Assembly (NCBI GenBank): GCA_028873745.1
Contig: JAPPNT010000027.1
Span: 10,793-45,348 of the forward strand
Reading direction: 5' to 3'
Origin: Chloroflexota bacterium
Lineage (GTDB): Bacteria > Chloroflexota > Dehalococcoidia > Lucifugimonadales > UBA1127
Length of the DNA: 34,556 bases
Each line of letters begins with the position of its first letter. Position 1 is the stretch's first letter. The translations under genes and the position numbers were made by a program. The notes beneath the pieces were generated by a model that was not told the origin of the DNA, ran no database searches, and worked only from the letters and a program-made list of their open reading frames with translations. Shown here piece by piece: positions 2,423 through 31,198 of the stretch.

Positions 2423-2638
2423 CTAGGCTCCCGTGCGCCGGCCCGCGACGCCCTCGGTGAAGAAGTAGACCGTGAGTCCGAAACCCATCATCATCAGCCC
2501 AACGCCGCCCATGACGTAAATGATCCCCGGACGCCCCTCGGCGATGACCGCGATGAGCACGGCCAGTCCGAACAACGCTCCCCCGAGGGACAGCAGGAAG
2601 CGGGGCGCGTACTTCAGGATGTCTTCCGGCTGTATCAC
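2423..2638 (-). CDS. Small hypothetical membrane protein (two predicted TM helices)
   Basis: 71 aa with two hydrophobic stretches (FLLSLGGALFGLAVLIAVIA; VMGGVGLMMMGFGLTVYFF). The GTG start overlaps the hemQ stop as GTGA, which indicates translational coupling. No family recognised. Confidence 0.5.
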   Translation of the reverse strand: MIQPEDILKYAPRFLLSLGGALFGLAVLIAVIAEGRPGIIYVMGGVGLMMMGFGLTVYFFTEGVAGRRTGA

Positions 2639-3345
2639 CCGATTCCTCGCAGGATGTCGTCCAGCCCCCGGGCGATGCAGGTGAATATGGGCGTGTCCCG
2701 CTCCGTGTACGGCCGGGCCTCCGCTTCACGCAGCTCCATCAGCAGGTCCAGGAACTCGTCGATGTTGGACACGTCGAAGGCCACCACGTGCTCCTGGTCG
2801 TCGATGCCGAAAGAGTACGTCGTGTTGTTGCGCACGCCCGGGTACTTGTGCCCGATGGCGAAGTGCTGGTTCATCATCTCCTGCCGCCGCTCCAGCGGAA
2901 GCTGGTACCACTCAGCCGTCTTCACGAAGGGGTAGACGACAAGGTACGGGTGGTCGGGGCTCTGCGGCCGGATCGCCTTCGCGCGCCCCTCCTGCCCCGC
3001 GTGCACGTGGTCGTCAACGTACGGCGACGGCCGTGTCAGCGAGAGGTACGAGTGTGCCGTCCGCAGGTATTTTCCGAGGCCCGTGCCGTTCACCGCCGCC
3101 GCAAACTCCTGCATGCCGTCGAGCGTCCACCCAAGCAGCCACAGCAGGAAGTCGGCGTCTCTGCGCAACCCCACCAGCGAATACGTGCGCACCTCTATGC
3201 GGTCGGAGAACTCGCCCACCATGGCGGAGAACTCGCGGCGGTGGTCGTCGCGCTCGGCGTCGGACAGGCGGCGCCATGCGGGGTCCACCTGGTAGAAGTT
3301 GTACTTCACCACCTGCCGGCGCATCGTGGGCTGTGCCTCGGTCAT
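2635..3345 (-). CDS. hemQ: Chlorite-dismutase-family protein, probable coproheme decarboxylase
   Basis: ...KYNFYQVDPAWRRL...LVVYPFVKTAEWYQLPLERRQEMMNQHFAIGHKYPGVRNNTTYSFGIDDQEHVVAFD... is typical of HemQ/ChdC. I chose ATG 3345 (MTEAQPTMRRQ...) because GGAGGG lies 5-10 nt upstream. The 57 residues further upstream in the track ORF are not family-like. Confidence 0.8.
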   Translation of the reverse strand: MTEAQPTMRRQVVKYNFYQVDPAWRRLSDAERDDHRREFSAMVGEFSDRIEVRTYSLVGLRRDADFLLWLLGWTLDGMQEFAAAVNGTGLGKYLRTAHSYLSLTRPSPYVDDHVHAGQEGRAKAIRPQSPDHPYLVVYPFVKTAEWYQLPLERRQEMMNQHFAIGHKYPGVRNNTTYSFGIDDQEHVVAFDVSNIDEFLDLLMELREAEARPYTERDTPIFTCIARGLDDILRGIG

Positions 3346-3434
3346 CCCGCCCTCCAGTGGATGCCTGCCCTCGCGGGCAGGGTCGGCTACCATTATAGCT
3401 GCTGGCGGCAATCGCCCGCGCAATTGGTCATCGC

Positions 3435-3463
3435 TTGACACGCCAGCTACGGAACCATAGACT
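3435..3463 (+). promoter_or_regulatory. Sigma-70-type promoter: TTGACA, 17 nt spacer, TAGACT
   Basis: TTGACA at 3435-3440, exact 17-nt spacer, TAGACT at 3458-3463. It lies in the hemQ/sir divergent intergenic region and points toward sir. Confidence 0.45.
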
Positions 3464-3472
3464 AGCGGCACT

Positions 3473-3523
3473 ATGGTGACTGCACCAGTCAACAACTGTT
3501 GCCGCCGACTGCACACGGGGTAG
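3473..3523 (+). CDS. Candidate leader peptide MVTAPVNNCCRRLHTG (tandem Cys codons)
   Basis: ATG at 3473 lies 9 nt after the -10 hexamer and has no SD, so it is near-leaderless. Codons 9-10 are TGT TGC (3497-3502). Stop TAG at 3521-3523, 22 nt before an intrinsic terminator. Too short for coding statistics, so the call rests on context only. Confidence 0.35.
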   Translation: MVTAPVNNCCRRLHTG

Positions 3524-3545
3524 CCGAAATCCGATTCCGGTGCAG

Positions 3546-3581
3546 CCCCGCTCGCCGATGATCTGAGCGGGGTTTTGTTTT
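3546..3581 (+). terminator. Intrinsic terminator/attenuator hairpin inside the sir 5' leader
   Basis: CCCCGCTC (3546-3553), 11-nt loop, GAGCGGGG (3565-3572), then TTTTGTTTT (3573-3581). It sits between the promoter at 3435-3463 and the sir ATG at 3603. It is not oriented as a terminator for any minus-strand gene. Confidence 0.55.
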
Positions 3582-3602
3582 GGAGGCCATTGAGGAGGGA
3601 CC

Positions 3603-5369
3603 ATGACCACGACAGACAGCCGATGGAAGCCCAACGTCATCATCCCCGTGCTTCCTGAGGAGATCGACCACTTCGACAACGAGGCCAAGCGCTTCCGCTC
3701 CGGCGACCTCGACGCCGCCGAGTTCCGCGCCTTCCGCCTGCGCCAGGGCGTCTACGGCCAGCGCCAGCCCGACAACCAGATGATGCGCGTCAAGGTGCCC
3801 CTCGGCCGCATGACGCCCGACCAGCTCGAGTCCCTTGGCCGCATTGCCCGGGACTACACGCCGCTCAAGCGCGGCCACATCACCACTCGCGAGAACGTCC
3901 AGTACCACTTCCTCAACCTGGACGACGCCGCGGAAGTCATGCGCACGCTGGGCTCGACGGGCCTCGGCAGCCGCGAGGCGTGCGGCAACACCGTCCGCAA
4001 TGTCACGAGCTGCCCCCTGACCGGCGTCTGCCCGGAGGAGGTCTTTGACCCCAGCCCGTACGCCGTCGCCTACGTTCGCAACTTTGTGCGCCGCGACTTC
4101 ACCAACAACATGCCCCGCAAGTGGAAGACGGCCTTTTCCGGCTGCACCCACGACTGGGTGATGACCGCCATCCACGACATCGGCTTCCACGCGGTCATTC
4201 GCGAGGTGGACGGCGTCGAGCGCAAGGGCTTCCGCATCGTCGTTGGCGGCGGCACCAGCATCCAGCCGCTCATCGCCCAGGAGCTCTACGAGTTCGTGCC
4301 CGTCGAGGACTTCCTCAAGGTCTCTGAGGCGTGCCTGCGGGTATTCAACGCCGCGGACGAGCTCCGCAAGAACAAGATGAAGGCCCGCGTCAAGGTCCTC
4401 ATCAACCGCATCGGCATCGACGCCTTCCGTGAGATGGTCGAGAAGGTCATGGAAGAGGAGCTCGCCGACGTCACTTACGACCTGGATGAGCTGTCCGCCG
4501 GTGAGTACGAGGACCCGACTCCTCCGCCGCCCGCCGACTACCCGCCCTTCCCGAATGACGACCCCGCCTTCGAGCGCTGGCTGGGCAGCAATGTCATCGC
4601 GCAGAAGCAGGACGGCTACAGCGCGGTGTTCATCAAGCTGCGCCTCGGCAACGTCACCGACGAGCAGTTCTTCCAGCTTGCGGACATCTCCCGCGACCTC
4701 GCCGGCAGCATCCGCATGACGTTGCGGCAGGACATGACGCTGCAGTGGGTGCCCAACAACGCCCTCCACGCCCTGTACGAGAAGCTCGCCGCCGTCGGCA
4801 TGGCCGAGCCCGGCGCCAACGAGCTCTCCGACGTCGTATCCTGCCCCGGCACCGAGAGCTGCTCGCTTGGCATCACCTCGTCGCAGGGCTTGGCCGGCAA
4901 TCTTTGGGACGCCCTGAGTGAGTACAAGTCCCACGACGAGCTTGCCCGCAACATCCGCATCAACATCTCCGGTTGCCCGGACGGCTGCGGTCAGCACCAC
5001 CTCGGCAACATCGGCTTCCACGGCGCCGCCATCAAGGTCGGCAGCGCCCAGGTGCCCGCCTACGAGGTCTACATCGGCGGCAGCCAGATCAAGCCCGTCC
5101 GCATCGGCCAGCACCTGCGCGTGAAGGTCCCCTCCAAGCGCATCGAGGAGGCCATCAAGCTCATCGTCGACGACTACGTGGAGAACCGGAACGACGGCGA
5201 GATCTTCAACGACTACGTCGACCGCATCGGCGCTGCGTCCTACGAGGATCTCCTGAAGCCCGTCTCCACCGTCCCCGAGCTCGGCCGCGAGACCATCCAC
5301 TACTACATCGACTGGAACCGCGACGTCCTCTACAAGGTGGAGCGCGGCGAGGGTGAGTGCGCGGCGTAG
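3603..5369 (+). CDS. Ferredoxin-dependent sulfite/nitrite reductase (siroheme/4Fe-4S, SirA/NirA family)
   Basis: 588 aa with two nitrite/sulfite reductase repeats. Cluster/siroheme cysteine motifs SCPGTESCSLG and ISGCPDGCGQHHLGNIGFHG. SD GAGGAGGGA upstream of the ATG. Sulfite is favoured over nitrite only by the Cys-codon leader context. Confidence 0.85.
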   Translation: MTTTDSRWKPNVIIPVLPEEIDHFDNEAKRFRSGDLDAAEFRAFRLRQGVYGQRQPDNQMMRVKVPLGRMTPDQLESLGRIARDYTPLKRGHITTRENVQYHFLNLDDAAEVMRTLGSTGLGSREACGNTVRNVTSCPLTGVCPEEVFDPSPYAVAYVRNFVRRDFTNNMPRKWKTAFSGCTHDWVMTAIHDIGFHAVIREVDGVERKGFRIVVGGGTSIQPLIAQELYEFVPVEDFLKVSEACLRVFNAADELRKNKMKARVKVLINRIGIDAFREMVEKVMEEELADVTYDLDELSAGEYEDPTPPPPADYPPFPNDDPAFERWLGSNVIAQKQDGYSAVFIKLRLGNVTDEQFFQLADISRDLAGSIRMTLRQDMTLQWVPNNALHALYEKLAAVGMAEPGANELSDVVSCPGTESCSLGITSSQGLAGNLWDALSEYKSHDELARNIRINISGCPDGCGQHHLGNIGFHGAAIKVGSAQVPAYEVYIGGSQIKPVRIGQHLRVKVPSKRIEEAIKLIVDDYVENRNDGEIFNDYVDRIGAASYEDLLKPVSTVPELGRETIHYYIDWNRDVLYKVERGEGECAA

Positions 5370-5963: not shown

Positions 5964-6130
5964 GTCACAATAGGCGTCAAGTGTCAAGATTTTGTATAAC
6001 CCCATATGCATGTTGCGGCAGGTGCGAAACAAGAGAGTTTGGCCCAAACCGTGACGCCGCTTCCAACGCAAGCCAGACGCCTGTCGAGTACACTGGGCGC
6101 ATCCACATCGCAAACCACCGGGAAGGAAGC

Positions 6131-7543
6131 ATGGCGACTGACCAGGCCGCATTTGCACGCCGCGTTTACCCCCTTGATCCACGGGAGGTCTCCGAGGAGG
6201 AGCTTGCCGTCGTCTTCGCCATGACATCGCGCCGCCCCGAGCCCTTCGACGAGATCAAGGAGATGGTGACGGCCGAGAAGGCGTCGGACTTCCACGAGCG
6301 CTGGGTTCTCGGCTACGGCCACGCCTCCGTCGCCGAGCATGCCGTCGTCCACCTGGCCGTGGAGAACGTCTCCCGGCTCGCGTGTGACACACTGGAGGAC
6401 AACCGACTCGCCTCCTACACGGAGAAGTCCTCCCGCTACCAGGTGCTGGAGCGTGACGCCTTCTACACGCCGCCCGAGCTCGATGACGCGCCCGACCTCC
6501 GCGAGTCCTACACCGCGGCCTGCCGCCGTCTGTTCGACGTCTACCACGACCTCGTCGAGCGCACGCAGGAATACCTCGCCTCTGTGCACCCGCAGCGCGA
6601 GGGTGAGCGCGACGGCGGGTACCGCCTCCGCCTCCGCCGCATCGCCACCGATGCCTGCCGCTTCGTGCTCCCCGCCTCGACGCTGACCAACGTCGGCGTC
6701 ACTATGAACACGCGCTCCCTGGAGCACGCCGTCCGCAAGCTCCTCTCCTCCGACCTGCAGGAGGAGCGCGAGCTCGGCGAGGAGCTGAAGGAACAGGCTA
6801 GGACGATCACGCCAACCCTCGTTCGCTACGCCGACCGCAACGAGTACATCGTCCGCAACCGCGAGGCCCTGCAGGCGCAATCGGCTGTCCTGCAACCGGC
6901 GTCCTCGGCCCCGGCCGCCGGCGCCCGCTCCGTCGAGGCCCGCCTCGTCGACTACCCACGCGACGCCGAGGACCGCATCGTCGCCGCCCTCCTGTACCGC
7001 AATGCCCGCGAGCCGTACGAGACCGTCCGCGCCCGCGCCGAGGCCCTCTCCTCCGGGGAGCGCGAGGCCGTCATCGCCGCCGCCCTCGATTCGCTCGGCC
7101 CCCACGACGCCACGGTGCGGGAGCTGGAGCAGGTGGAGTATACCTTCGAATACCTGATGGACTACGGCGCCTACCGCGAGTTCAAGCGCCACCGCATGCA
7201 GTCATACCTCCCGCAGCCCCTCACCGTCGCCGAGGGGTACGTGGAGCCGGAGCTCTTCCCCGAGAGCGGCCTCTCGGACGCCCACCGTGAGGCAATGGAC
7301 GTGTCCGCAGAGGCGTACGCCTGCGTCGCGGCCCTGTCGCCCCGCCTCGCCGAGTACGTCGTCACCCACGCCCATCTGCGGCGCGTCGTCACGCGCATGA
7401 ACCTGCGCGAGTGCTATCACTACTTCAAGCTCCGCACGCAGCCGCAGGCGCACTTCACCATCCGCGAGGCGGCGCAGCAGGCCATGGACGCCGTCCGGGA
7501 GGTCCACCCGCTGCTCCTTCAGTTCATCAACCTGCGGGAGTGA
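6131..7543 (+). CDS. thyX: FAD-dependent thymidylate synthase, tandem (two Thy1-like halves) form
   Basis: The N-half has GYGHASVAEH and ...NRLASYTEKSSRYQ. The C-half has ...YREFKRHRMQSY... 470 aa is about twice a canonical ThyX. ATG 6131 is preceded by GGAAGGAAG. The upstream 50 residues of the track ORF are not family-like. Confidence 0.8.
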   Translation: MATDQAAFARRVYPLDPREVSEEELAVVFAMTSRRPEPFDEIKEMVTAEKASDFHERWVLGYGHASVAEHAVVHLAVENVSRLACDTLEDNRLASYTEKSSRYQVLERDAFYTPPELDDAPDLRESYTAACRRLFDVYHDLVERTQEYLASVHPQREGERDGGYRLRLRRIATDACRFVLPASTLTNVGVTMNTRSLEHAVRKLLSSDLQEERELGEELKEQARTITPTLVRYADRNEYIVRNREALQAQSAVLQPASSAPAAGARSVEARLVDYPRDAEDRIVAALLYRNAREPYETVRARAEALSSGEREAVIAAALDSLGPHDATVRELEQVEYTFEYLMDYGAYREFKRHRMQSYLPQPLTVAEGYVEPELFPESGLSDAHREAMDVSAEAYACVAALSPRLAEYVVTHAHLRRVVTRMNLRECYHYFKLRTQPQAHFTIREAAQQAMDAVREVHPLLLQFINLRE

Positions 7544-9512: not shown

Positions 9513-10195
9513 CCCGCGCGACGCCCGAGTTTCTTATGCAGGTCTATGACCGGCTCTTCGATGCCTATGGCCCGCAGGGTTGGTGGCCCGGCGCGGAGAG
9601 CCCAATTGAGGTGTGCGTCGGCGCTATCCTGACGCAGTCGGCCGCGTGGACCAACGTGGAGAAGGCGCTGGCACGGCTCAAAGAGGCCGGGGCGCTCTCC
9701 CTTGAGGCCATCCACGCCATGTCGCAGGAAGAGCTTGCCGAGCTTGTCCACGCCTCCGGCTACTTCAACGTCAAGGCAAGGAAGCTCAAGGCCTTCGCGC
9801 AGCACGTCCACGAGCGGCACGGCGGCGACCTCGACGCGATGCTCGCGCAGCCGTGGGAGGCGCTGCGGGCGGAGCTGCTCGGTGTCTACGGCATCGGAGA
9901 GGAGACGGCGGACGACATCGTTCTGTACGCCGCGGGCGCGCCCAGCTTCGTCATGGACGCCTACACGCGCCGCATCCTGTCGCGCCTCGGCGTCGAGGCG
10001 GCTGACGAACGCTACGAGAGCTACCGCCGCCTCTTTATGGACGCGCTCCCGCCGGACGCGCGGATGTTCAACGAGTACCACGCGCTGTTGGACAAGCTGG
10101 CCAAGGACGTATGCCGGAAGCGCGGCCCTCGGTGCGGCGAGTGCCCGCTGCTGGACCTGTGCCCCACGGGACTGGGCGAGGTCGAGGCGGACTAG
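9509..10195 (+). CDS. Endonuclease III-related HhH-GPD protein with C-terminal 4Fe-4S cluster loop (COG2231-like)
   Basis: ...YGPQGWWPG...ILTQSAAWTNVEKAL...IYGIGEETADDIVLYA... and C-x7-C-x2-C-x5-C (CRKRGPRCGECPLLDLC). GTG 9509 overlaps the upstream stop as GTGA. ATG 9536 is an alternative start. Confidence 0.75.
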   Translation: MTRATPEFLMQVYDRLFDAYGPQGWWPGAESPIEVCVGAILTQSAAWTNVEKALARLKEAGALSLEAIHAMSQEELAELVHASGYFNVKARKLKAFAQHVHERHGGDLDAMLAQPWEALRAELLGVYGIGEETADDIVLYAAGAPSFVMDAYTRRILSRLGVEAADERYESYRRLFMDALPPDARMFNEYHALLDKLAKDVCRKRGPRCGECPLLDLCPTGLGEVEAD

Positions 10196-10581
10196 CCCAG
10201 CAAACTGCCTACCGCCATGTGGAACGACTCCGGCGCTATCTCGAAGAGCCAATGATTGTTGAAGCGGATATTAGCTAGCTTGGCCGCGTCGCGAGGCTCG
10301 AAGAGGAAGCGCAGGTCCTCCAGCGCCACCGCCCGCGACAGCGGCTCGTAGTCGTAGCGGAAGGACTGCTGCGTGTGATCCACCTCCGTCACCACGCCGA
10401 CGCCGGGCACGCTCTTGGGGTACCGGGCGTAGCCGCCCGTGCAGTACAGGAGCACCAGGTCGCCCGGCGCGATGCCGTCCGGCCAGCCAGCGTTTACGCC
10501 AAAGTGGCCTTCCTCGACGGTCACGTGGCCGGGGAGCCAGGGGTTGCCAAAGACGGCGAAGTAGTAGCGCGGCTCCTTCAT
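10192..10581 (-). CDS. Hypothetical protein, possibly EVE/PUA-like fold
   Basis: 129 aa with native codon usage. ...GDLVLLYCTG...GVGVVTEV... and the C-terminal ...ALEDLRF...NHWLFEIAPESF... loosely resemble EVE-domain proteins. The family call is low confidence. The stop overlaps the EndoIII-like stop by 4 bp. Confidence 0.45.
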   Translation of the reverse strand: MKEPRYYFAVFGNPWLPGHVTVEEGHFGVNAGWPDGIAPGDLVLLYCTGGYARYPKSVPGVGVVTEVDHTQQSFRYDYEPLSRAVALEDLRFLFEPRDAAKLANIRFNNHWLFEIAPESFHMAVGSLLG

Positions 10582-10659
10582 GGCATTCGACTATAGCAGC
10601 CCTGCTGTCCGGCGGGGCCTTCGACAGGCTCAGGCCGAACGGTGGGAGAGGGGCGAGGA

Positions 10660-11496
10660 CTAGTCTGTCGTGAGCGCCGTGTCCTCGCGGTTGGCCCACT
10701 CGCCCATGGAGCCGTCGTAGTTGCGGACATTGTCGTAGCCCACCAGCCGCAGTGTCAGCAGTCCGTGCGCCGCACGGATGCCGCCTTGTCAGTAGGTGAT
10801 GACTTCCTTGTCCGGCGTCACCCCCGCCGCGTCCAGCAGCGCCCGGATCTCCTCCGCCGACTTCCACGAGCGGTTCGGCTCCGGGTTCATGAAGTTCGTC
10901 CACTCCAGGTGGACCGACCCGGGCACGTGGCCGATGCGCTTGTTCCCGCGCGAGTTCTCTCCCGTCCACTCACCGTCGGAGCGGACGTCAAGGAAAATGA
11001 CGCCCTCGTCGCCGACACGCGATATGCCGTAGTCGAGAGGGCACAGGACGCTGTCATCGACGACGGGGGTGAACGTCGCCGCAGCCGGGCTTGGGATGTC
11101 GCGGGAGATTGGCCGGCCCTCGTGGAACCAGCGCTCCCAGCCGCCGTTGAGCACCTTCGCATTGGTGTGGCCGTAGTGGTTGAGCACCCACCACATCCGG
11201 CACGCCGGCACGCCGCCCGCCGTGTCATACGACACCACCGTCGTGTCCGGCCCGACGCCCAGGTCGCCCATCAGCTTGGCGAACTGGTCCGGCGGCATGA
11301 CGTGCAGCGGGTCGTTGGCGTCCTTGATGAACGGGTTGACCCGAAGCCCGACGGCGCCCTTGATATGGGCCTTCTGGTACAGGTCAAACGTGGCACAGTC
11401 GATGATGCGCACGTTGGGGTCGTCCAGGTGTGCCTCCAGCCAGTCCGGCTCCGCAAGGAGCTCCGGCCTGACGTATCCCGCGGATGACTGCGTCAT
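10660..11496 (-). CDS. Two-domain rhodanese (thiosulfate/3-mercaptopyruvate sulfurtransferase type) with in-frame TGA at the catalytic Cys position; candidate selenoprotein, otherwise a nonsense pseudogene
   Basis: N-terminal domain ...VRIIDC...YQKAHIKGAV... and C-terminal domain ...FLDVRSDGEW...GHVPGSVHLEW... The ORF halts at TGA (10789-10791) after ...DKEVITY. The same frame then continues QGGIRAAHGLLTLRLVGYDNVRNYDGSMGEWANREDTALTTD to TAG at 10660-10662. That gives Y-[TGA]-QGGIR, the rhodanese C-x-x-G-x-R active-site loop. ATG 11496 is preceded by GGGGAGG with a 6-nt spacer. Confidence 0.6.
10756..10783 (-). promoter_or_regulatory. SECIS-like mRNA hairpin immediately 3' of the in-frame UGA
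   Basis: The mRNA reads CGGCAUCCGUGC-GGC-GCACGGACUGCUG. This forms a stem of 12 pairs (one G-U) with one bulged C and an apical GGC at about +21 to +23 from the U of UGA. Folded by eye only. Confidence 0.4.
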
Positions 11497-11615
11497 AAGG
11501 CGCCTCCCCTTGGTTTCCCGCCAGTATACTCCACACGCATCGCGCTCATGCACTATCATAGAGGTGCGAATGCAATGGCGGCCGGCAGGCCGTGGCCAAA
11601 AGGCTGGGAGGATTC

Positions 11616-28347: not shown

Positions 28348-28953
28348 CTACCCGGCCCGGACGTACCGCTCCAACGCCGCGCGGTAGTCCTCAAGGGTGT
28401 TGATGTCGAGGCGCACCATGGGGTCGCCGAGCTCCACGCGCTGCAGGCTGTCCAGGTGCCGGCCCACGACCTCGCGGATGCCCTGGCGCTCCTCGGAGAT
28501 GGCCAGCAATTCCGCCCGCAGCGAGGCGTGGAAGACGATGGGGTGCCCGCCACGGCCCTCGTAGGTGGGGTGCGTCACGTGGGCGTTGCCCGCCAGGTGT
28601 ACTTCAATGACGCTGCGGATGATCGCGGGCGTGCGCGGTTGGTCGACGGCCAGCAGCAGGATGCTGTCTGCGTCGGCGTCGACGTGCGACACGCCCAGCC
28701 GCACCGAGGTGGTCTTGCCCTCCGGCGCGCGCTGGTTGACCACGGTGCGGACGTTTGAGATGTCCGTAACGCAGGCCTCCGCGTCGAGCGTGGTCGGCCC
28801 GAGCACGACCACGATGGGGGCGGCTCCCGATTCCGCCAACGACTCGACTTGGTAGCGCACGAGAGGAACGTCGCCCCACAGCAGCAGGGGTTTGGGTTGG
28901 CCCATTCGTGAGGACTCGCCCGCGGCGAGCAGGACAGCGGCGACGCCGGGCAC
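28348..28953 (-). CDS. mocA: MobA-like NTP transferase, probable molybdenum cofactor cytidylyltransferase
   Basis: AAVLLAAGESSRMGQPKPLL...VVNQRAPEGKTTSVRLG...LLLAVDQP... GTG start 2 nt after the xdhC-like stop, with AGGAG 6 nt upstream. Confidence 0.7.
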   Translation of the reverse strand: MPGVAAVLLAAGESSRMGQPKPLLLWGDVPLVRYQVESLAESGAAPIVVVLGPTTLDAEACVTDISNVRTVVNQRAPEGKTTSVRLGVSHVDADADSILLLAVDQPRTPAIIRSVIEVHLAGNAHVTHPTYEGRGGHPIVFHASLRAELLAISEERQGIREVVGRHLDSLQRVELGDPMVRLDINTLEDYRAALERYVRAG

Positions 28954-28955
28954 GC

Positions 28956-30089
28956 CTAGCTCCTGCCGGGGACTGCCGTGCCCTTTTCGCGGGCGATGCC
29001 GAAGAGGCGGTTGTCCATCTGCAGCGCGGAGCCGCTGGCGCCATGCCTGAGCGCCACGATCTCCGACATGATGCTGAGCGCGATCTCCTCCGGCGTCCGG
29101 CCGCCCAGGTCAAGGCCAACGGGCGCGCGCACGGCGCGGATGCGCTCCTCCGGGATGCCTTTGCGGAAGAGCTCCTCGAAGATCATGAGGTTCTTGCGCT
29201 TGCTGCCCAGGATGCCGACGTAGCTCGCTTTGGAGCGCACGGCCGCTTCCGCGGCCATGTCGTCATAGCGGTGGCCGCGCGTCGCGACGACGACGGCCGT
29301 GTTGGGCGTGATGGGGATGCTCTCAAGGCCCTTGTCGTACTCCGCGACGATGGTCTCCACCGCGTCCGGGAACCGCTCGGGGTTCGCGAACTCCGGGCGG
29401 TCGTCCACGACGTAATACTGGTACCCCAGCGGGCCCGCCAGGGTGGTGAGCGCCTTGGAGATGTGGCCGCCGCCCATGACGACCAGCGTCGGCGGGAGGG
29501 TGAACGCCTCGATGAACAACTGGAAGCCCTCGTCCGTCGTGTGGTGCTCGCACTTGCCGTAGTCCAGCAGCAGCTCGATGCGGTCGATGGCCTGCGCGTC
29601 GAGCGTCTCGCTGCTGAGGGTGCCCTTTGTATTACGGGCCGCGTCCAAGTACAGCTTCGTGCCGACGGCCAGCGACGAGCCCTCCGGCGCGCCCACGAGC
29701 GTCGCGATGCCGATTGCCGTGTCGCCGTCGTAGGCCCGCTCTACCTTGCGGAGCTCCGGGAGCACGTCAACCGGCTCGCGGATGGGGTCGAGCAGGAAGT
29801 GCATGGTGCCGCCGCAGATGAGACCGTCCCGCGCGGCCAGCTCCTCGGTGAGCTCGTAGTCGCGCACCTCTGCGGGGCCGCCGCCGCGCAGCAGCATCTT
29901 GGCCGCGAACCAGATGTCGCCCTCGACGCAGCCGCCGCCCAGCGTCCCGACGCCGCTGCCGTCGGCGCGCACGAGGAGCTTGGCGCCGGGCTTCTGCGGC
30001 GTGGAGCCCTCCGTCTGGATGACGGTGACCAACACGCAGGGGTCACCGGCCTCCAGGGCCTTGACGGTCTCATGAAACACGTGCTGCAT
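28956..30089 (-). CDS. XdhC/CoxI family molybdenum-hydroxylase accessory protein
   Basis: MQHVFHETVKALEAGDPCVLVTVIQTEGSTPQKPGAKLLV...GGGCVEGD... (XdhC_CoxI N domain) and ...LVVMGGGHISKAL... (Rossmann-like C domain). ATG 30089 is preceded by GGAGG. The 76 upstream residues of the track ORF were not used. Confidence 0.75.
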   Translation of the reverse strand: MQHVFHETVKALEAGDPCVLVTVIQTEGSTPQKPGAKLLVRADGSGVGTLGGGCVEGDIWFAAKMLLRGGGPAEVRDYELTEELAARDGLICGGTMHFLLDPIREPVDVLPELRKVERAYDGDTAIGIATLVGAPEGSSLAVGTKLYLDAARNTKGTLSSETLDAQAIDRIELLLDYGKCEHHTTDEGFQLFIEAFTLPPTLVVMGGGHISKALTTLAGPLGYQYYVVDDRPEFANPERFPDAVETIVAEYDKGLESIPITPNTAVVVATRGHRYDDMAAEAAVRSKASYVGILGSKRKNLMIFEELFRKGIPEERIRAVRAPVGLDLGGRTPEEIALSIMSEIVALRHGASGSALQMDNRLFGIAREKGTAVPGRS

Positions 30090-30176
30090 GTCTGCGCGAC
30101 CTCCACGCGGCTGGCACCATTCTACCGCAGCGCCCCAAGCCGTGCAGCCCTGCACTGCTTCGGCTTCCAAATGAGA

Positions 30177-30204
30177 CAGCGCCTCGGCTCTCGCCGGGGC
30201 GCTG
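30177..30204 (-). terminator. Terminator hairpin after the ABC transporter operon
   Basis: 12-bp stem (CAGCGCCYCGGC / GCCGGGGCGCTG, one G-U pair) with a 4-nt loop. On the minus strand it is followed by TCTCATTT. Lies between the oppF-like stop (30227) and the xdhC-like start (30089). Confidence 0.5.
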
Positions 30205-30226
30205 CCATGCGTCGCTTCGTTGGTTT

Positions 30227-31198
30227 CTAGTACAGGTGGCAGTTCACGAAGTGGCCGGGGGCCATCTCCTTGCGCACCGGGATCTCCTGTGAGCAGATGT
30301 CCATCGCGTACGGGCACCGGACGTGGAACCGGCAGCCGGAGGGCGGGTTGATGGGGCTGGGGACCTCACCGCGCAGGATGATCTCCTCCCGCTGTGAGTC
30401 CGGGTTCGCAGTCAGCGCCGCCGAGAATAGGGCCTTCGTGTACGGGTGGAGCGTGTTGTCGTACAGCTCGTTCGTCTCGGCCTGCTCCACAATCTCGCCG
30501 AGGTACATGACCGCCACCTCGTTGGCGAGGTAGCGGACGGTGGCGAGGTTGTGGGCCACGAGCAGGTAACCGACACCGAACGACTCCTGCAGGTCCTTCA
30601 GCAGGTTGATGATCTGCGCCTGAATGGACACGTCCAGAGCCGAAACCGGCTCGTCCAGGCAGATCAGCTTGGGGTTGCCCACCAGCGCCGCCGCGAGGGC
30701 CAGCCTCTGCCGCTGGCCGCCGCTGAACTCGTGCGGGTACAGGGTGGACTGCTGCGTGCGAAGCCCCACCTGCGTCAGCAGGTAGTCGACGCGGTCATAG
30801 GCTTCGACCTTGGTCACCTTCTGGTTGACCACCAGCGCCTCGGAGATGATGTCGCGCACGCGCATGCGGGGGCTGAGGGAGCTCCACGGGTCCTGGAAGA
30901 CCGCTTGGACGTCCGTGTGGTACTGCTTCAGCTCCTCGCCCTCCATCTGGTGGACGTCCGAGTTCTCAAGCGAGATCTGGCCGGTAGTCGGACGCTCCAG
31001 CCGGAGGATGAGTTTTGCGGTGGTCGTCTTGCCGCACCCGGACTCCCCCACCAGCGCGAGCGTCTCGCCCCGCCGGATGGTGAAGTTGATGTGGTCGACC
31101 GCCTGCACCCAGCCGATGATCTTCTGGAGCACGAGCCCCTTGGTCACCGGGAAGTACTTCGTCAGGTCTGTAGCCCGGAGCAGGACGTCCTGTTCCAT
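30227..31198 (-). CDS. Peptide/nickel-type ABC transporter ATP-binding protein (OppF/DppF-like)
   Basis: Walker A GESGCGKTT, signature FSGGQRQRLALA, Walker B LICLDEP, and the C-terminal oligopeptide-transporter extension with Cys residues. ATG 31198 is preceded by GGAGG. Confidence 0.8.
   Translation of the reverse strand: MEQDVLLRATDLTKYFPVTKGLVLQKIIGWVQAVDHINFTIRRGETLALVGESGCGKTTTAKLILRLERPTTGQISLENSDVHQMEGEELKQYHTDVQAVFQDPWSSLSPRMRVRDIISEALVVNQKVTKVEAYDRVDYLLTQVGLRTQQSTLYPHEFSGGQRQRLALAAALVGNPKLICLDEPVSALDVSIQAQIINLLKDLQESFGVGYLLVAHNLATVRYLANEVAVMYLGEIVEQAETNELYDNTLHPYTKALFSAALTANPDSQREEIILRGEVPSPINPPSGCRFHVRCPYAMDICSQEIPVRKEMAPGHFVNCHLY

Follow-up and report, generated by a model that had tools for sequence, protein, structure and literature searches.

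The window analysed here is a stretch of 34,556 nucleotides (nt) from contig JAPPNT010000027.1 of a sponge-associated Dehalococcoidia bacterium (Chloroflexota). Judging from comparison with homologous sequences, its minus strand very probably encodes, at positions 10660 to 11496, a selenocysteine (Sec)-containing two-domain rhodanese, i.e. a sulfurtransferase of the thiosulfate/3-mercaptopyruvate type. The gene starts with an ATG (11494–11496), which lies 6 nt 3′ of a Shine-Dalgarno-like AAGGGGAGG (11503–11511, minus strand; read from the sequence). Its reading frame runs for 235 codons, the last residues being ...DKEVITY, and then meets a TGA at codon 236 (10789–10791). Beyond the TGA, 42 further in-frame codons (QGGIRAAHGLLTLRLVGYDNVRNYDGSMGEWANREDTALTTD) lead to a TAG at 10660–10662, giving 278 residues in all for the complete product. 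An earlier note, made from the letters of the window alone, had described a rhodanese frame interrupted by this TGA and an uninterrupted tail of 42 codons, and translation of the minus strand confirms both. Public gene calls begin at the same ATG and end at the TGA, with a product of 235 amino acids (P0128).

When Cys is written for the stop, the product contains two PF00581 Rhodanese stretches (Pfam, E = 2.3e-38). The N-terminal domain (residues ~8–131; 11104–11475, limits approximate and inferred from Pfam and from the 1UAR and 1E0C alignments) is one that we take to be the non-catalytic repeat of the two-domain fold. The C-terminal, catalytic domain (residues 160–269; 10690–11019) covers Pfam profile positions 8 to 101 of 102. 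This domain spans the TGA, and hence a product ending there would lack the active site, as the earlier note had argued. The closest solved structures are 1UAR (E = 6.8e-50) and RhdA (1E0C), and in both alignments the TGA falls on the catalytic Cys, as the same note had supposed. The architecture is thus that of a two-domain rhodanese, with tandem domains and the catalytic residue at the head of the C-terminal active-site loop. The codons of this loop, U-Q-G-G-I-R-A (10771–10791), correspond to TYCQGGIRAAH in Cys homologues, and the same bases form the spacer and the 5′ arm of a putative Sec insertion sequence (SECIS).

The best NCBIfam match of the window protein is PRK11493, of the two-domain SseA/COG2897 type. 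Its score against the SseA equivalog NF008557 is 123.6 bits, below the cut-off of 250. SseA loops are of the type CG[ST]GVT, while the loop UQGGIR carries Arg at +5 and is nearer to thiosulfate-type loops. With a score below the cut-off and Arg at +5, the window rhodanese may be of either the thiosulfate or the 3-mercaptopyruvate class.

An in-frame TGA shared by homologues

Homologous loci were sought in one genome per GTDB species, and the best 80 (L001–L080) carry the labels Dehalococcoidia, SAR202, Chloroflexota, Candidatus Binatia and, in a few cases, Deltaproteobacteria/Thermodesulfobacteriota. TGA occupies the same codon in 80/80 of these loci; in each it is followed in frame by QGGIRAAHG...NYDGSMGEWANR, with a stop 41–46 codons on. 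The best locus, in OZ220679.1, lies on a 2.59-Mb chromosome, is syntenic with the window and encodes a protein 97% identical to that of the window. A second scan, made in metagenomes and seeded with Cys forms, yielded 48 Cys codons (46 TGC, 2 TGT) and 29 more TGA forms (28 at first count, plus L090 under a relaxed pattern). Overall, codon 236 is TGA in 110 sequences and TGC or TGT in 48. The alignment of orthologues that the earlier note had proposed as a check thus reveals Cys/Sec pairs in this column, with conservation continuing 3′ of the TGA.

Protein databases reflect the same division. The eight closest clusters (76–89% identity) and eleven remoter ones all end at ...[TS]Y, and at least 76 of the 120 protein matches listed are full-length Cys forms with TYCQGGIRAAH. 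In a neighbour-joining tree, the window gene falls within a clade of ~100 sequences, all of them Sec forms, and Cys forms make up a clade of their own; the tree implies about six switches between Sec and Cys. Cys orthologues are also found in Dehalococcoidia, among them the Tepidiforma flava sulfurtransferase (P0061), P0010 and P0013, which are 54–62% identical to the window protein over the full length. They share with it the loop TY-C/U-QGGIRAAH and the tail NYDGSM.EWANR but differ in having TGC or TGT, variable I-R-A-A-H codons and usually Ala as the next residue. Because of these variable codons and the Ala, Cys orthologues do not form the hairpin described below, with one exception (L081).

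The sequence of the window gene is reproducible. All 837 nt, with TGA and tail, show zero mismatches across four assemblies, two from ENA based on different samples (SAMN13943215 and SAMN13943214) and two from Logan based on separate runs. One of the ENA sequences carrying the gene, and the one from which the window derives, is a sponge-metagenome scaffold of 40,081 bp (ROBB21-1_SAMN13943215 scaffold_1985). A related ENA contig, whose product P0009 (282 amino acids) is 91% identical over the first 70% of the query, runs out of frame from about residue 194, through either an assembly frameshift or a real pseudogene copy in that sample.

Selection on the codons beyond the TGA

Ratios of nonsynonymous to synonymous substitution (dN/dS) were calculated by the Nei-Gojobori method for 81 genome-derived genes, with the window gene and L001–L008 taken as the window clade. 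For tail codons +10 to +40, dN/dS is 0.13 over all pairs and 0.083 within the window clade. For the region upstream of the UGA, the corresponding values are 0.24 and 0.10. As dS is ∼1 over all pairs, these sites have had ample time to change. All 81 tails in this set are nonetheless in frame, with no frameshifts and no extra stops; decay of the tail in close relatives, which the earlier note had named as grounds for abandoning its proposal, is not seen. These comparisons indicate that the 42 codons 3′ of the UGA are translated and under purifying selection.

A hairpin 3′ of the UGA and its conservation

The 66-nt stretch 3′ of the UGA folds with a predicted free energy of –29.5 kcal/mol (z = –3.45), and none of 200 shuffled sequences folds as well. 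In the minimum free energy structure, the stem extends without interruption from 10783 to 10756, with 12–13 pairs, one bulged C (10761) and a GGC apical loop at +21 to +23. Its core, U-CCGUGC-GGC-GCACGG-A (10762–10778), has 6–7 bp, begins 10–11 nt after the UGA and carries the GGC loop at 10769–10771.

The earlier note had described a SECIS-like hairpin of 12 pairs. That structure does form in the window, but only its upper 6–7 pairs (10762–10778) are conserved in relatives, and RNAalifold retains the core alone. The long stem of 12–13 pairs is present in the window and L001–L008 only; in other clades, the lower part pairs differently or remains unpaired. We also considered a conserved lower helix (UGA+4..+11 with +35..+42) and rejected it, as 79% of cells pair but there is no covariation and the pairing is no better than in shuffled sequences. 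Given that only the core is kept and that the lower helix lacks covariation, the functional element is likely to be the upper hairpin, as in E. coli.

Constraint at the RNA level was assessed from synonymous codon use in 81 sequences, by computing the entropy for the 100 alignment columns with a degenerate amino acid conserved at 90% or more. Lowest in entropy are five consecutive codons of the hairpin, I240-R-A-A-H244, an arrangement with a chance probability of ∼1.3e-6. Codon use at these positions is close to uniform: ATC in 81/81, CGT in 77/81, GCG in 81/81, GCG in 81/81 and CAC in 81/81. Elsewhere in these rhodanese genes, Arg is rarely encoded by CGT. Q237 is next lowest (normalised entropy 0.17), and all remaining columns have values of at least 0.29.

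The Cys forms provide a comparison, as they encode the same loop. The Ile codon is ATC in 106/109 Sec forms versus 35/48 Cys forms (the others being 12 ATT and one Val GTA; Fisher P = 1.5e-5), and the Arg codon is CGT in 105/109 versus 4/48 (P = 1.7e-29). For the first Ala, GCG is used in 109/109 versus 22/48 (P = 8e-17), and for His, CAC is used in 109/109 versus 35/48 (P = 5.7e-8); these four P values take no account of phylogenetic relatedness. The codon contrast holds at each of several places in the tree where Sec and Cys forms interleave. The residue after I-R-A-A-H is Gly in Sec forms, its codon (GGN) completing the 3′ arm, and is mostly Ala in Cys forms. The hairpin sequence UCCGUGC-GGC-GCACGGA is held constant by selection beyond the requirements of the protein.

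Pairing in the core is likewise maintained. Across 110 Sec forms, the seven-pair core helix is 97.4% paired, with four pairs the same throughout. In L149, L150 and L151, the second pair from the base is A-U instead of C-G; the codon changes behind it are AUC to AUA and GGN to GUN, and the latter costs the protein a Gly, replaced by Val. These compensated forms carry AUACGUGCGGCGCACGU(N) (L149:1196-1255, L150:1494-1553 and L151:887-946), and the observed covariation score was reached by none of 500 shuffles. L150 lies inside the Cys clade of the neighbour-joining tree and L149 and L151 inside the Sec clade; from these separate positions, the double change probably arose twice.

The hairpin is also highly specific to this gene. 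In ∼2 Mb of fetched DNA, the 15-mer CCGTGCGGCGCACGG occurs 108 times, and 107 of these occurrences lie 11 nt after a rhodanese TGA. The remaining one is in L081 (L081:3700-3740, contig Ga0101943_1000111), where a TGC form retains an intact ATCCGTGCGGCGCACGGA hairpin. L081 seems to have switched from Sec to Cys recently, its SECIS being left as a fossil.

Two further features of the neighbouring codons were noted. L011, L030, L037 and L042 have CGC for CGT at codon +5, which places a C-A mismatch in the middle of the helix; this may be tolerated, or may form a protonated wobble pair. The Tyr codon immediately 5′ of the UGA (codon 235, 10792–10794) is UAU in 78/109 Sec forms versus 13/48 Cys forms. 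Other conserved Tyr columns that were examined in Sec-form genes prefer UAC, and the window clade itself has UAC at codon 235. The preference for UAU before the UGA may be a context effect on Sec insertion.

Relation to known SECIS elements, rhodaneses and selenoproteins

The SECIS of E. coli K-12 fdhF (NC_000913.3, in which the UGA is codon 140) offers a direct comparison. Both hairpins follow the UGA directly and lie within the coding region, and both have a G-rich loop, at matching distances. Counted from the U of the UGA, the apical GGUC of fdhF is at 22–25, and in the window the GGC loop is at 21–23 with the core stem starting at 14–15. The earlier note had called the two loop positions close, and the reference sequence agrees. 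One difference is that the upper stem of the window hairpin lacks the bulged U of the fdhF SECIS.

Among solved rhodaneses, 1UAR (Thermus thermophilus), 1E0C (Azotobacter vinelandii RhdA) and the bovine enzyme (1RHD) have the same tandem domains as the window protein. In 1UAR and 1E0C, as in the window, the C-terminal domain has a six-residue loop whose first residue is the catalytic one. These enzymes use Cys, with loops CRIAERS (1UAR) and CQTHHRS (RhdA), versus UQGGIRA in the window. We know of no Sec-containing rhodanese that has been solved or assayed.

The window gene belongs to a known, computationally predicted selenoprotein family. A COG2897-type ‘rhodanese-related sulfurtransferase’ selenoprotein was predicted from three sequences of the Sargasso Sea metagenome in 2005 (PMC1088965), and forms described as ‘Sulfurtransferase COG2897’ and cd01449 recur in surveys of the Olavius symbionts (2007) and of the Global Ocean Sampling (GOS) data (2008). 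A table in a 2026 review, in which no Sec-containing rhodanese is given as verified by experiment, lists the COG2897-type UxxG rhodanese (form 4) outside the block headed ‘Experimentally verified’. Together, the 2005 prediction and this table bear out the remark of the earlier note that rhodanese selenoproteins had been predicted but were poorly characterised. Like the window protein (U-Q-G-G), form 4 has the PF00581 fold, a single Sec and a UxxG motif, and comes from marine and symbiont metagenomes; the assignment rests on fold, motif and the single Sec, compared with the description of the family rather than with its representative MCY3690685.1. The early surveys differ from the present data in proportions, with 1–8 Sec sequences against thousands of Cys homologues in GOS, whereas here Sec is the majority form in a clade of ~100 species of Dehalococcoidia, SAR202 and Binatia. 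Another rhodanese-fold selenoprotein is the ‘rhodanese-related (seleno)protein’ rhodanese_LYCAU (NF041203, form 3), which, unlike the two-domain window protein, has a single domain of ∼126 residues and a CxU motif. Membership of the window protein in NF041203 was rejected (33.6 bits versus a cut-off of 115, and a different architecture).

Weighing the evidence for selenocysteine

We put the probability that UGA-236 encodes Sec at roughly 0.9. This estimate draws on the position of the codon at the catalytic Cys, its recurrence among homologues, the evidence for a translated tail, the constraint on the RNA and a geometry like that of fdhF. Three features expected of a bacterial selenoprotein gene are seen here: a UGA in the column of a functional Cys, a tail under selection, and a stem-loop whose apical loop contains G and lies roughly as far from the UGA as that of fdhF. 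The proposal of the earlier note that this TGA is read as Sec is therefore supported by comparative evidence, by selection on the tail, and by a freezing of synonymous sites in the hairpin that is confined to Sec forms.

Several observations weigh against this assignment. The apical loop of the window, GGC or, with the closing pair open, CGGCG, has no U, versus GGUC in fdhF. With the core nearly invariant, classical covariation rests on one pair and the lower helix provides none; the disregard of relatedness in the Fisher values belongs here as well. No Rfam family matches the hairpin, either in the whole window at gathering thresholds or in 10600–10900 at E values up to 10, but this null is uninformative, since it means only that no curated family fits. 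The bacterial Sec pathway comprises SelA, SelB, SelC and SelD. Searches by tblastn with E. coli SelA, SelB and SelD found no selA, selB or selD homologue in the window and the first 160 fetched loci (1.93 Mb), the sole match being EF-Tu in L029, and ARAGORN found no tRNA-Sec in the window or in L001–L080.

Nor are there sel genes in the 10 kb beyond one end of the window, and we conclude that these genes are not linked to the rhodanese locus. Indirect support for Sec decoding in the lineage comes from three sources. One is L019, a TGA-rhodanese locus on contig MPND01000034.1 of the SAR202 cluster bacterium bin90. For this genome, COG1921 SelA (three hits) and COG3276 SelB (one hit) are listed in Table S4 of the paper describing bin90, which also reports that most sponge-symbiont bins have SelA and SelB together. 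Another is the BSepDB paper, in which two Dehalococcoidia metagenome-assembled genomes, with 46 and 49 selenoproteins, are among the richest bacteria. The third is a second candidate selenoprotein, which seven SAR202-like loci carry ∼7.7 kb upstream of their Sec-rhodanese (L019:1962-2648, with the TGA at 2334; TGA positions in the others are L031:2335, L044:2354, L048:2217, L056:3403, L063:1148 and L073:2251). Its product, secreted or of lipoprotein type, is AhpC-TSA/thioredoxin-like and carries the motif FHATW-U-G(T/S)C (UxxC); the in-frame TGA is present in 7/7, with a small hairpin ∼12 nt beyond it. This candidate came from a screen of ∼1.9 Mb for other genes with a TGA aligned to Cys or to a TGA in other loci. 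Most matches in the screen were out-of-frame Arg/Pro-rich artefacts of GC-rich genes and were discarded, and after a composition filter only the thioredoxin-like UxxC candidate was convincing.

Other explanations have to be set against these data. The earlier note had offered two competing ones. In one, a nonsense change from TGC or TGT to TGA cuts the enzyme before its active site and leaves the tail to decay. Public gene callers do all stop at the TGA, with products of 235–239 amino acids, and the related contig that encodes P0009 is frameshifted. Yet TGA is found in 110 homologues, 81/81 tails are in frame, and dN/dS in the tail is 0.13 with dS near 1. Sequence beyond a true stop would not show such values, and it is not believable that the same codon suffered separate nonsense mutations in ~100 species. 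We therefore regard a pseudogene as very improbable. An error of sequencing or assembly at the TGA codon, the other competing explanation, draws on the origin of the window in a short-read metagenome scaffold. It is contradicted by the four identical assemblies and by TGA in complete chromosomes such as OZ220679.1, and we give it scarcely any credence.

It could also be that the UGA is read as sense, but not as Sec. Nothing specific favours reassignment of UGA throughout the genome (code 4 or code 25). In the window, TGA ends at least five other genes with good support (those for a chlorite-dismutase-like protein, ThyX, DUF3090, POR and IspF), with Pfam matches that reach the C-termini of their products, and these ordinary stops exclude a genome-wide change of meaning. 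Moreover, a GC content of 66.5% and membership in the Chloroflexota are not typical of known recoded lineages. This explanation has next to no chance of being correct. Readthrough at this codon alone, with Trp or Cys inserted by a near-cognate or suppressor tRNA, or with Cys carried on tRNA(Sec) when selenium is scarce, was also weighed. The case for Sec is made by sequence comparison, and sel genes were found neither in the window nor in the fetched loci. Against such readthrough, the codon specifies the catalytic nucleophile, a role that in rhodaneses no residue but Cys or Sec can fill; SelB-dependent recoding is marked by just such an invariant hairpin, spaced as in fdhF; and SelA and SelB are reported in a genome that has an orthologue (bin90). 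Occasional insertion of Cys by the Sec machinery would complement the decoding of UGA as Sec and not replace it. On balance, we consider readthrough without Sec improbable.

Proposed mechanism and implications

If the UGA is decoded as Sec, then by analogy with known systems SelB carrying Sec-tRNA(Sec) would bind the hairpin as the ribosome decodes the UGA, 10–11 nt upstream of the stem, and Sec would be inserted in place of termination. In the mature enzyme, Sec would be the first residue of the six-residue loop U-Q-G-G-I-R. In rhodaneses such as the bovine enzyme and RhdA, the residue at the head of this loop carries the transferred sulfane sulfur as a persulfide. By the same analogy, Sec would take the sulfane sulfur from a donor, form a Se-S intermediate and pass the sulfur to a thiophilic acceptor. 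The use of Sec is commonly explained by the lower pKa of the selenol, its higher nucleophilicity and its easier recovery from oxidation.

A broader interpretation is that Sec may have become fixed as the rhodanese nucleophile in ~100 species, across Dehalococcoidia, SAR202 and genomes labelled Binatia, Deltaproteobacteria and Thermodesulfobacteriota, with the SECIS held frozen by its encoding within the catalytic-loop codons themselves. We offer this tentatively and think it rather doubtful as a whole. If this is true, few bacterial selenoproteins apart from formate dehydrogenase would be as widespread or as stable over evolution, and the fixation of Sec would point to a Se-S relay chemistry that Cys cannot replace in marine and sponge-associated bacteria.

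The finding leaves the understanding of the Sec decoding mechanism unchanged. What it adds to family membership is the large Sec clade, a SECIS arm encoded by frozen catalytic-loop codons, and the uniform truncation of the gene calls. As to the last of these, all public gene calls found for the window protein and its relatives are truncations of 232–239 residues that lack the active site. They amount to hundreds of database entries (clusters P0001, P0004, P0060, P0143 and P0158), which, where named, are called ‘thiosulfate/3-mercaptopyruvate sulfurtransferase’. Public annotation of the Sec-rhodanese family is thus systematically wrong, with the active site lost. Owing to this uniform truncation, a broken enzyme enters metabolic reconstructions of Dehalococcoidia, SAR202 and Binatia, and the number of selenoproteins in them is underestimated. 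The 15-mer CCGTGCGGCGCACGG provides a very specific marker of the Sec-rhodanese hairpin. Natural Sec/Cys pairs, including L081, would allow a direct test of the benefit of selenium in sulfane-sulfur transfer, and the sharing of the same 17 nt by the SECIS arm and the catalytic loop makes this a clean case of overlapping RNA and protein constraints.

Gene neighbourhood and other features of the window

Gene context was compared across 81 loci, and no neighbouring gene is common to the whole rhodanese family. An arylsulfotransferase-like gene lies downstream of the rhodanese in 30/81 loci, and an EamA transporter gene is found there in 13 others. The former (PF05935/PF14269) encodes ∼373 residues; it shares the strand of the rhodanese and starts ∼50 nt beyond the stop of the latter (e.g. 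L071:10865-11986). Its presence in 30 of the loci makes a tie between the Sec-rhodanese and organosulfur metabolism possible. The window clade has neither gene downstream. In the window, a 129-residue open reading frame (10192–10581, minus strand) lies 78 nt downstream of the rhodanese and shows strong coding bias, with a GC content at third codon positions of 0.88; it has no Pfam match and is conserved in the window clade only.

Elsewhere in the window, the ThyX open reading frame (5981–7543, plus strand) is 470–520 residues long and has two Thy1 (PF02511) stretches. A usual ThyX is about half this length, and the window gene appears, from its sequence, to encode a tandem-fused flavin-dependent thymidylate synthase. 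Three further groups of genes are not adjacent to the rhodanese. A molybdate-type ABC transporter occupies 40–2419 (SBP_bac_11, a permease, and an ATPase with a TOBE domain), and MobA-like and XdhC genes, for molybdenum-cofactor handling, are found at 28348–30317. At 2635–5369, a NIR_SIR sulfite/nitrite reductase gene lies beside the chlorite-dismutase-like gene.

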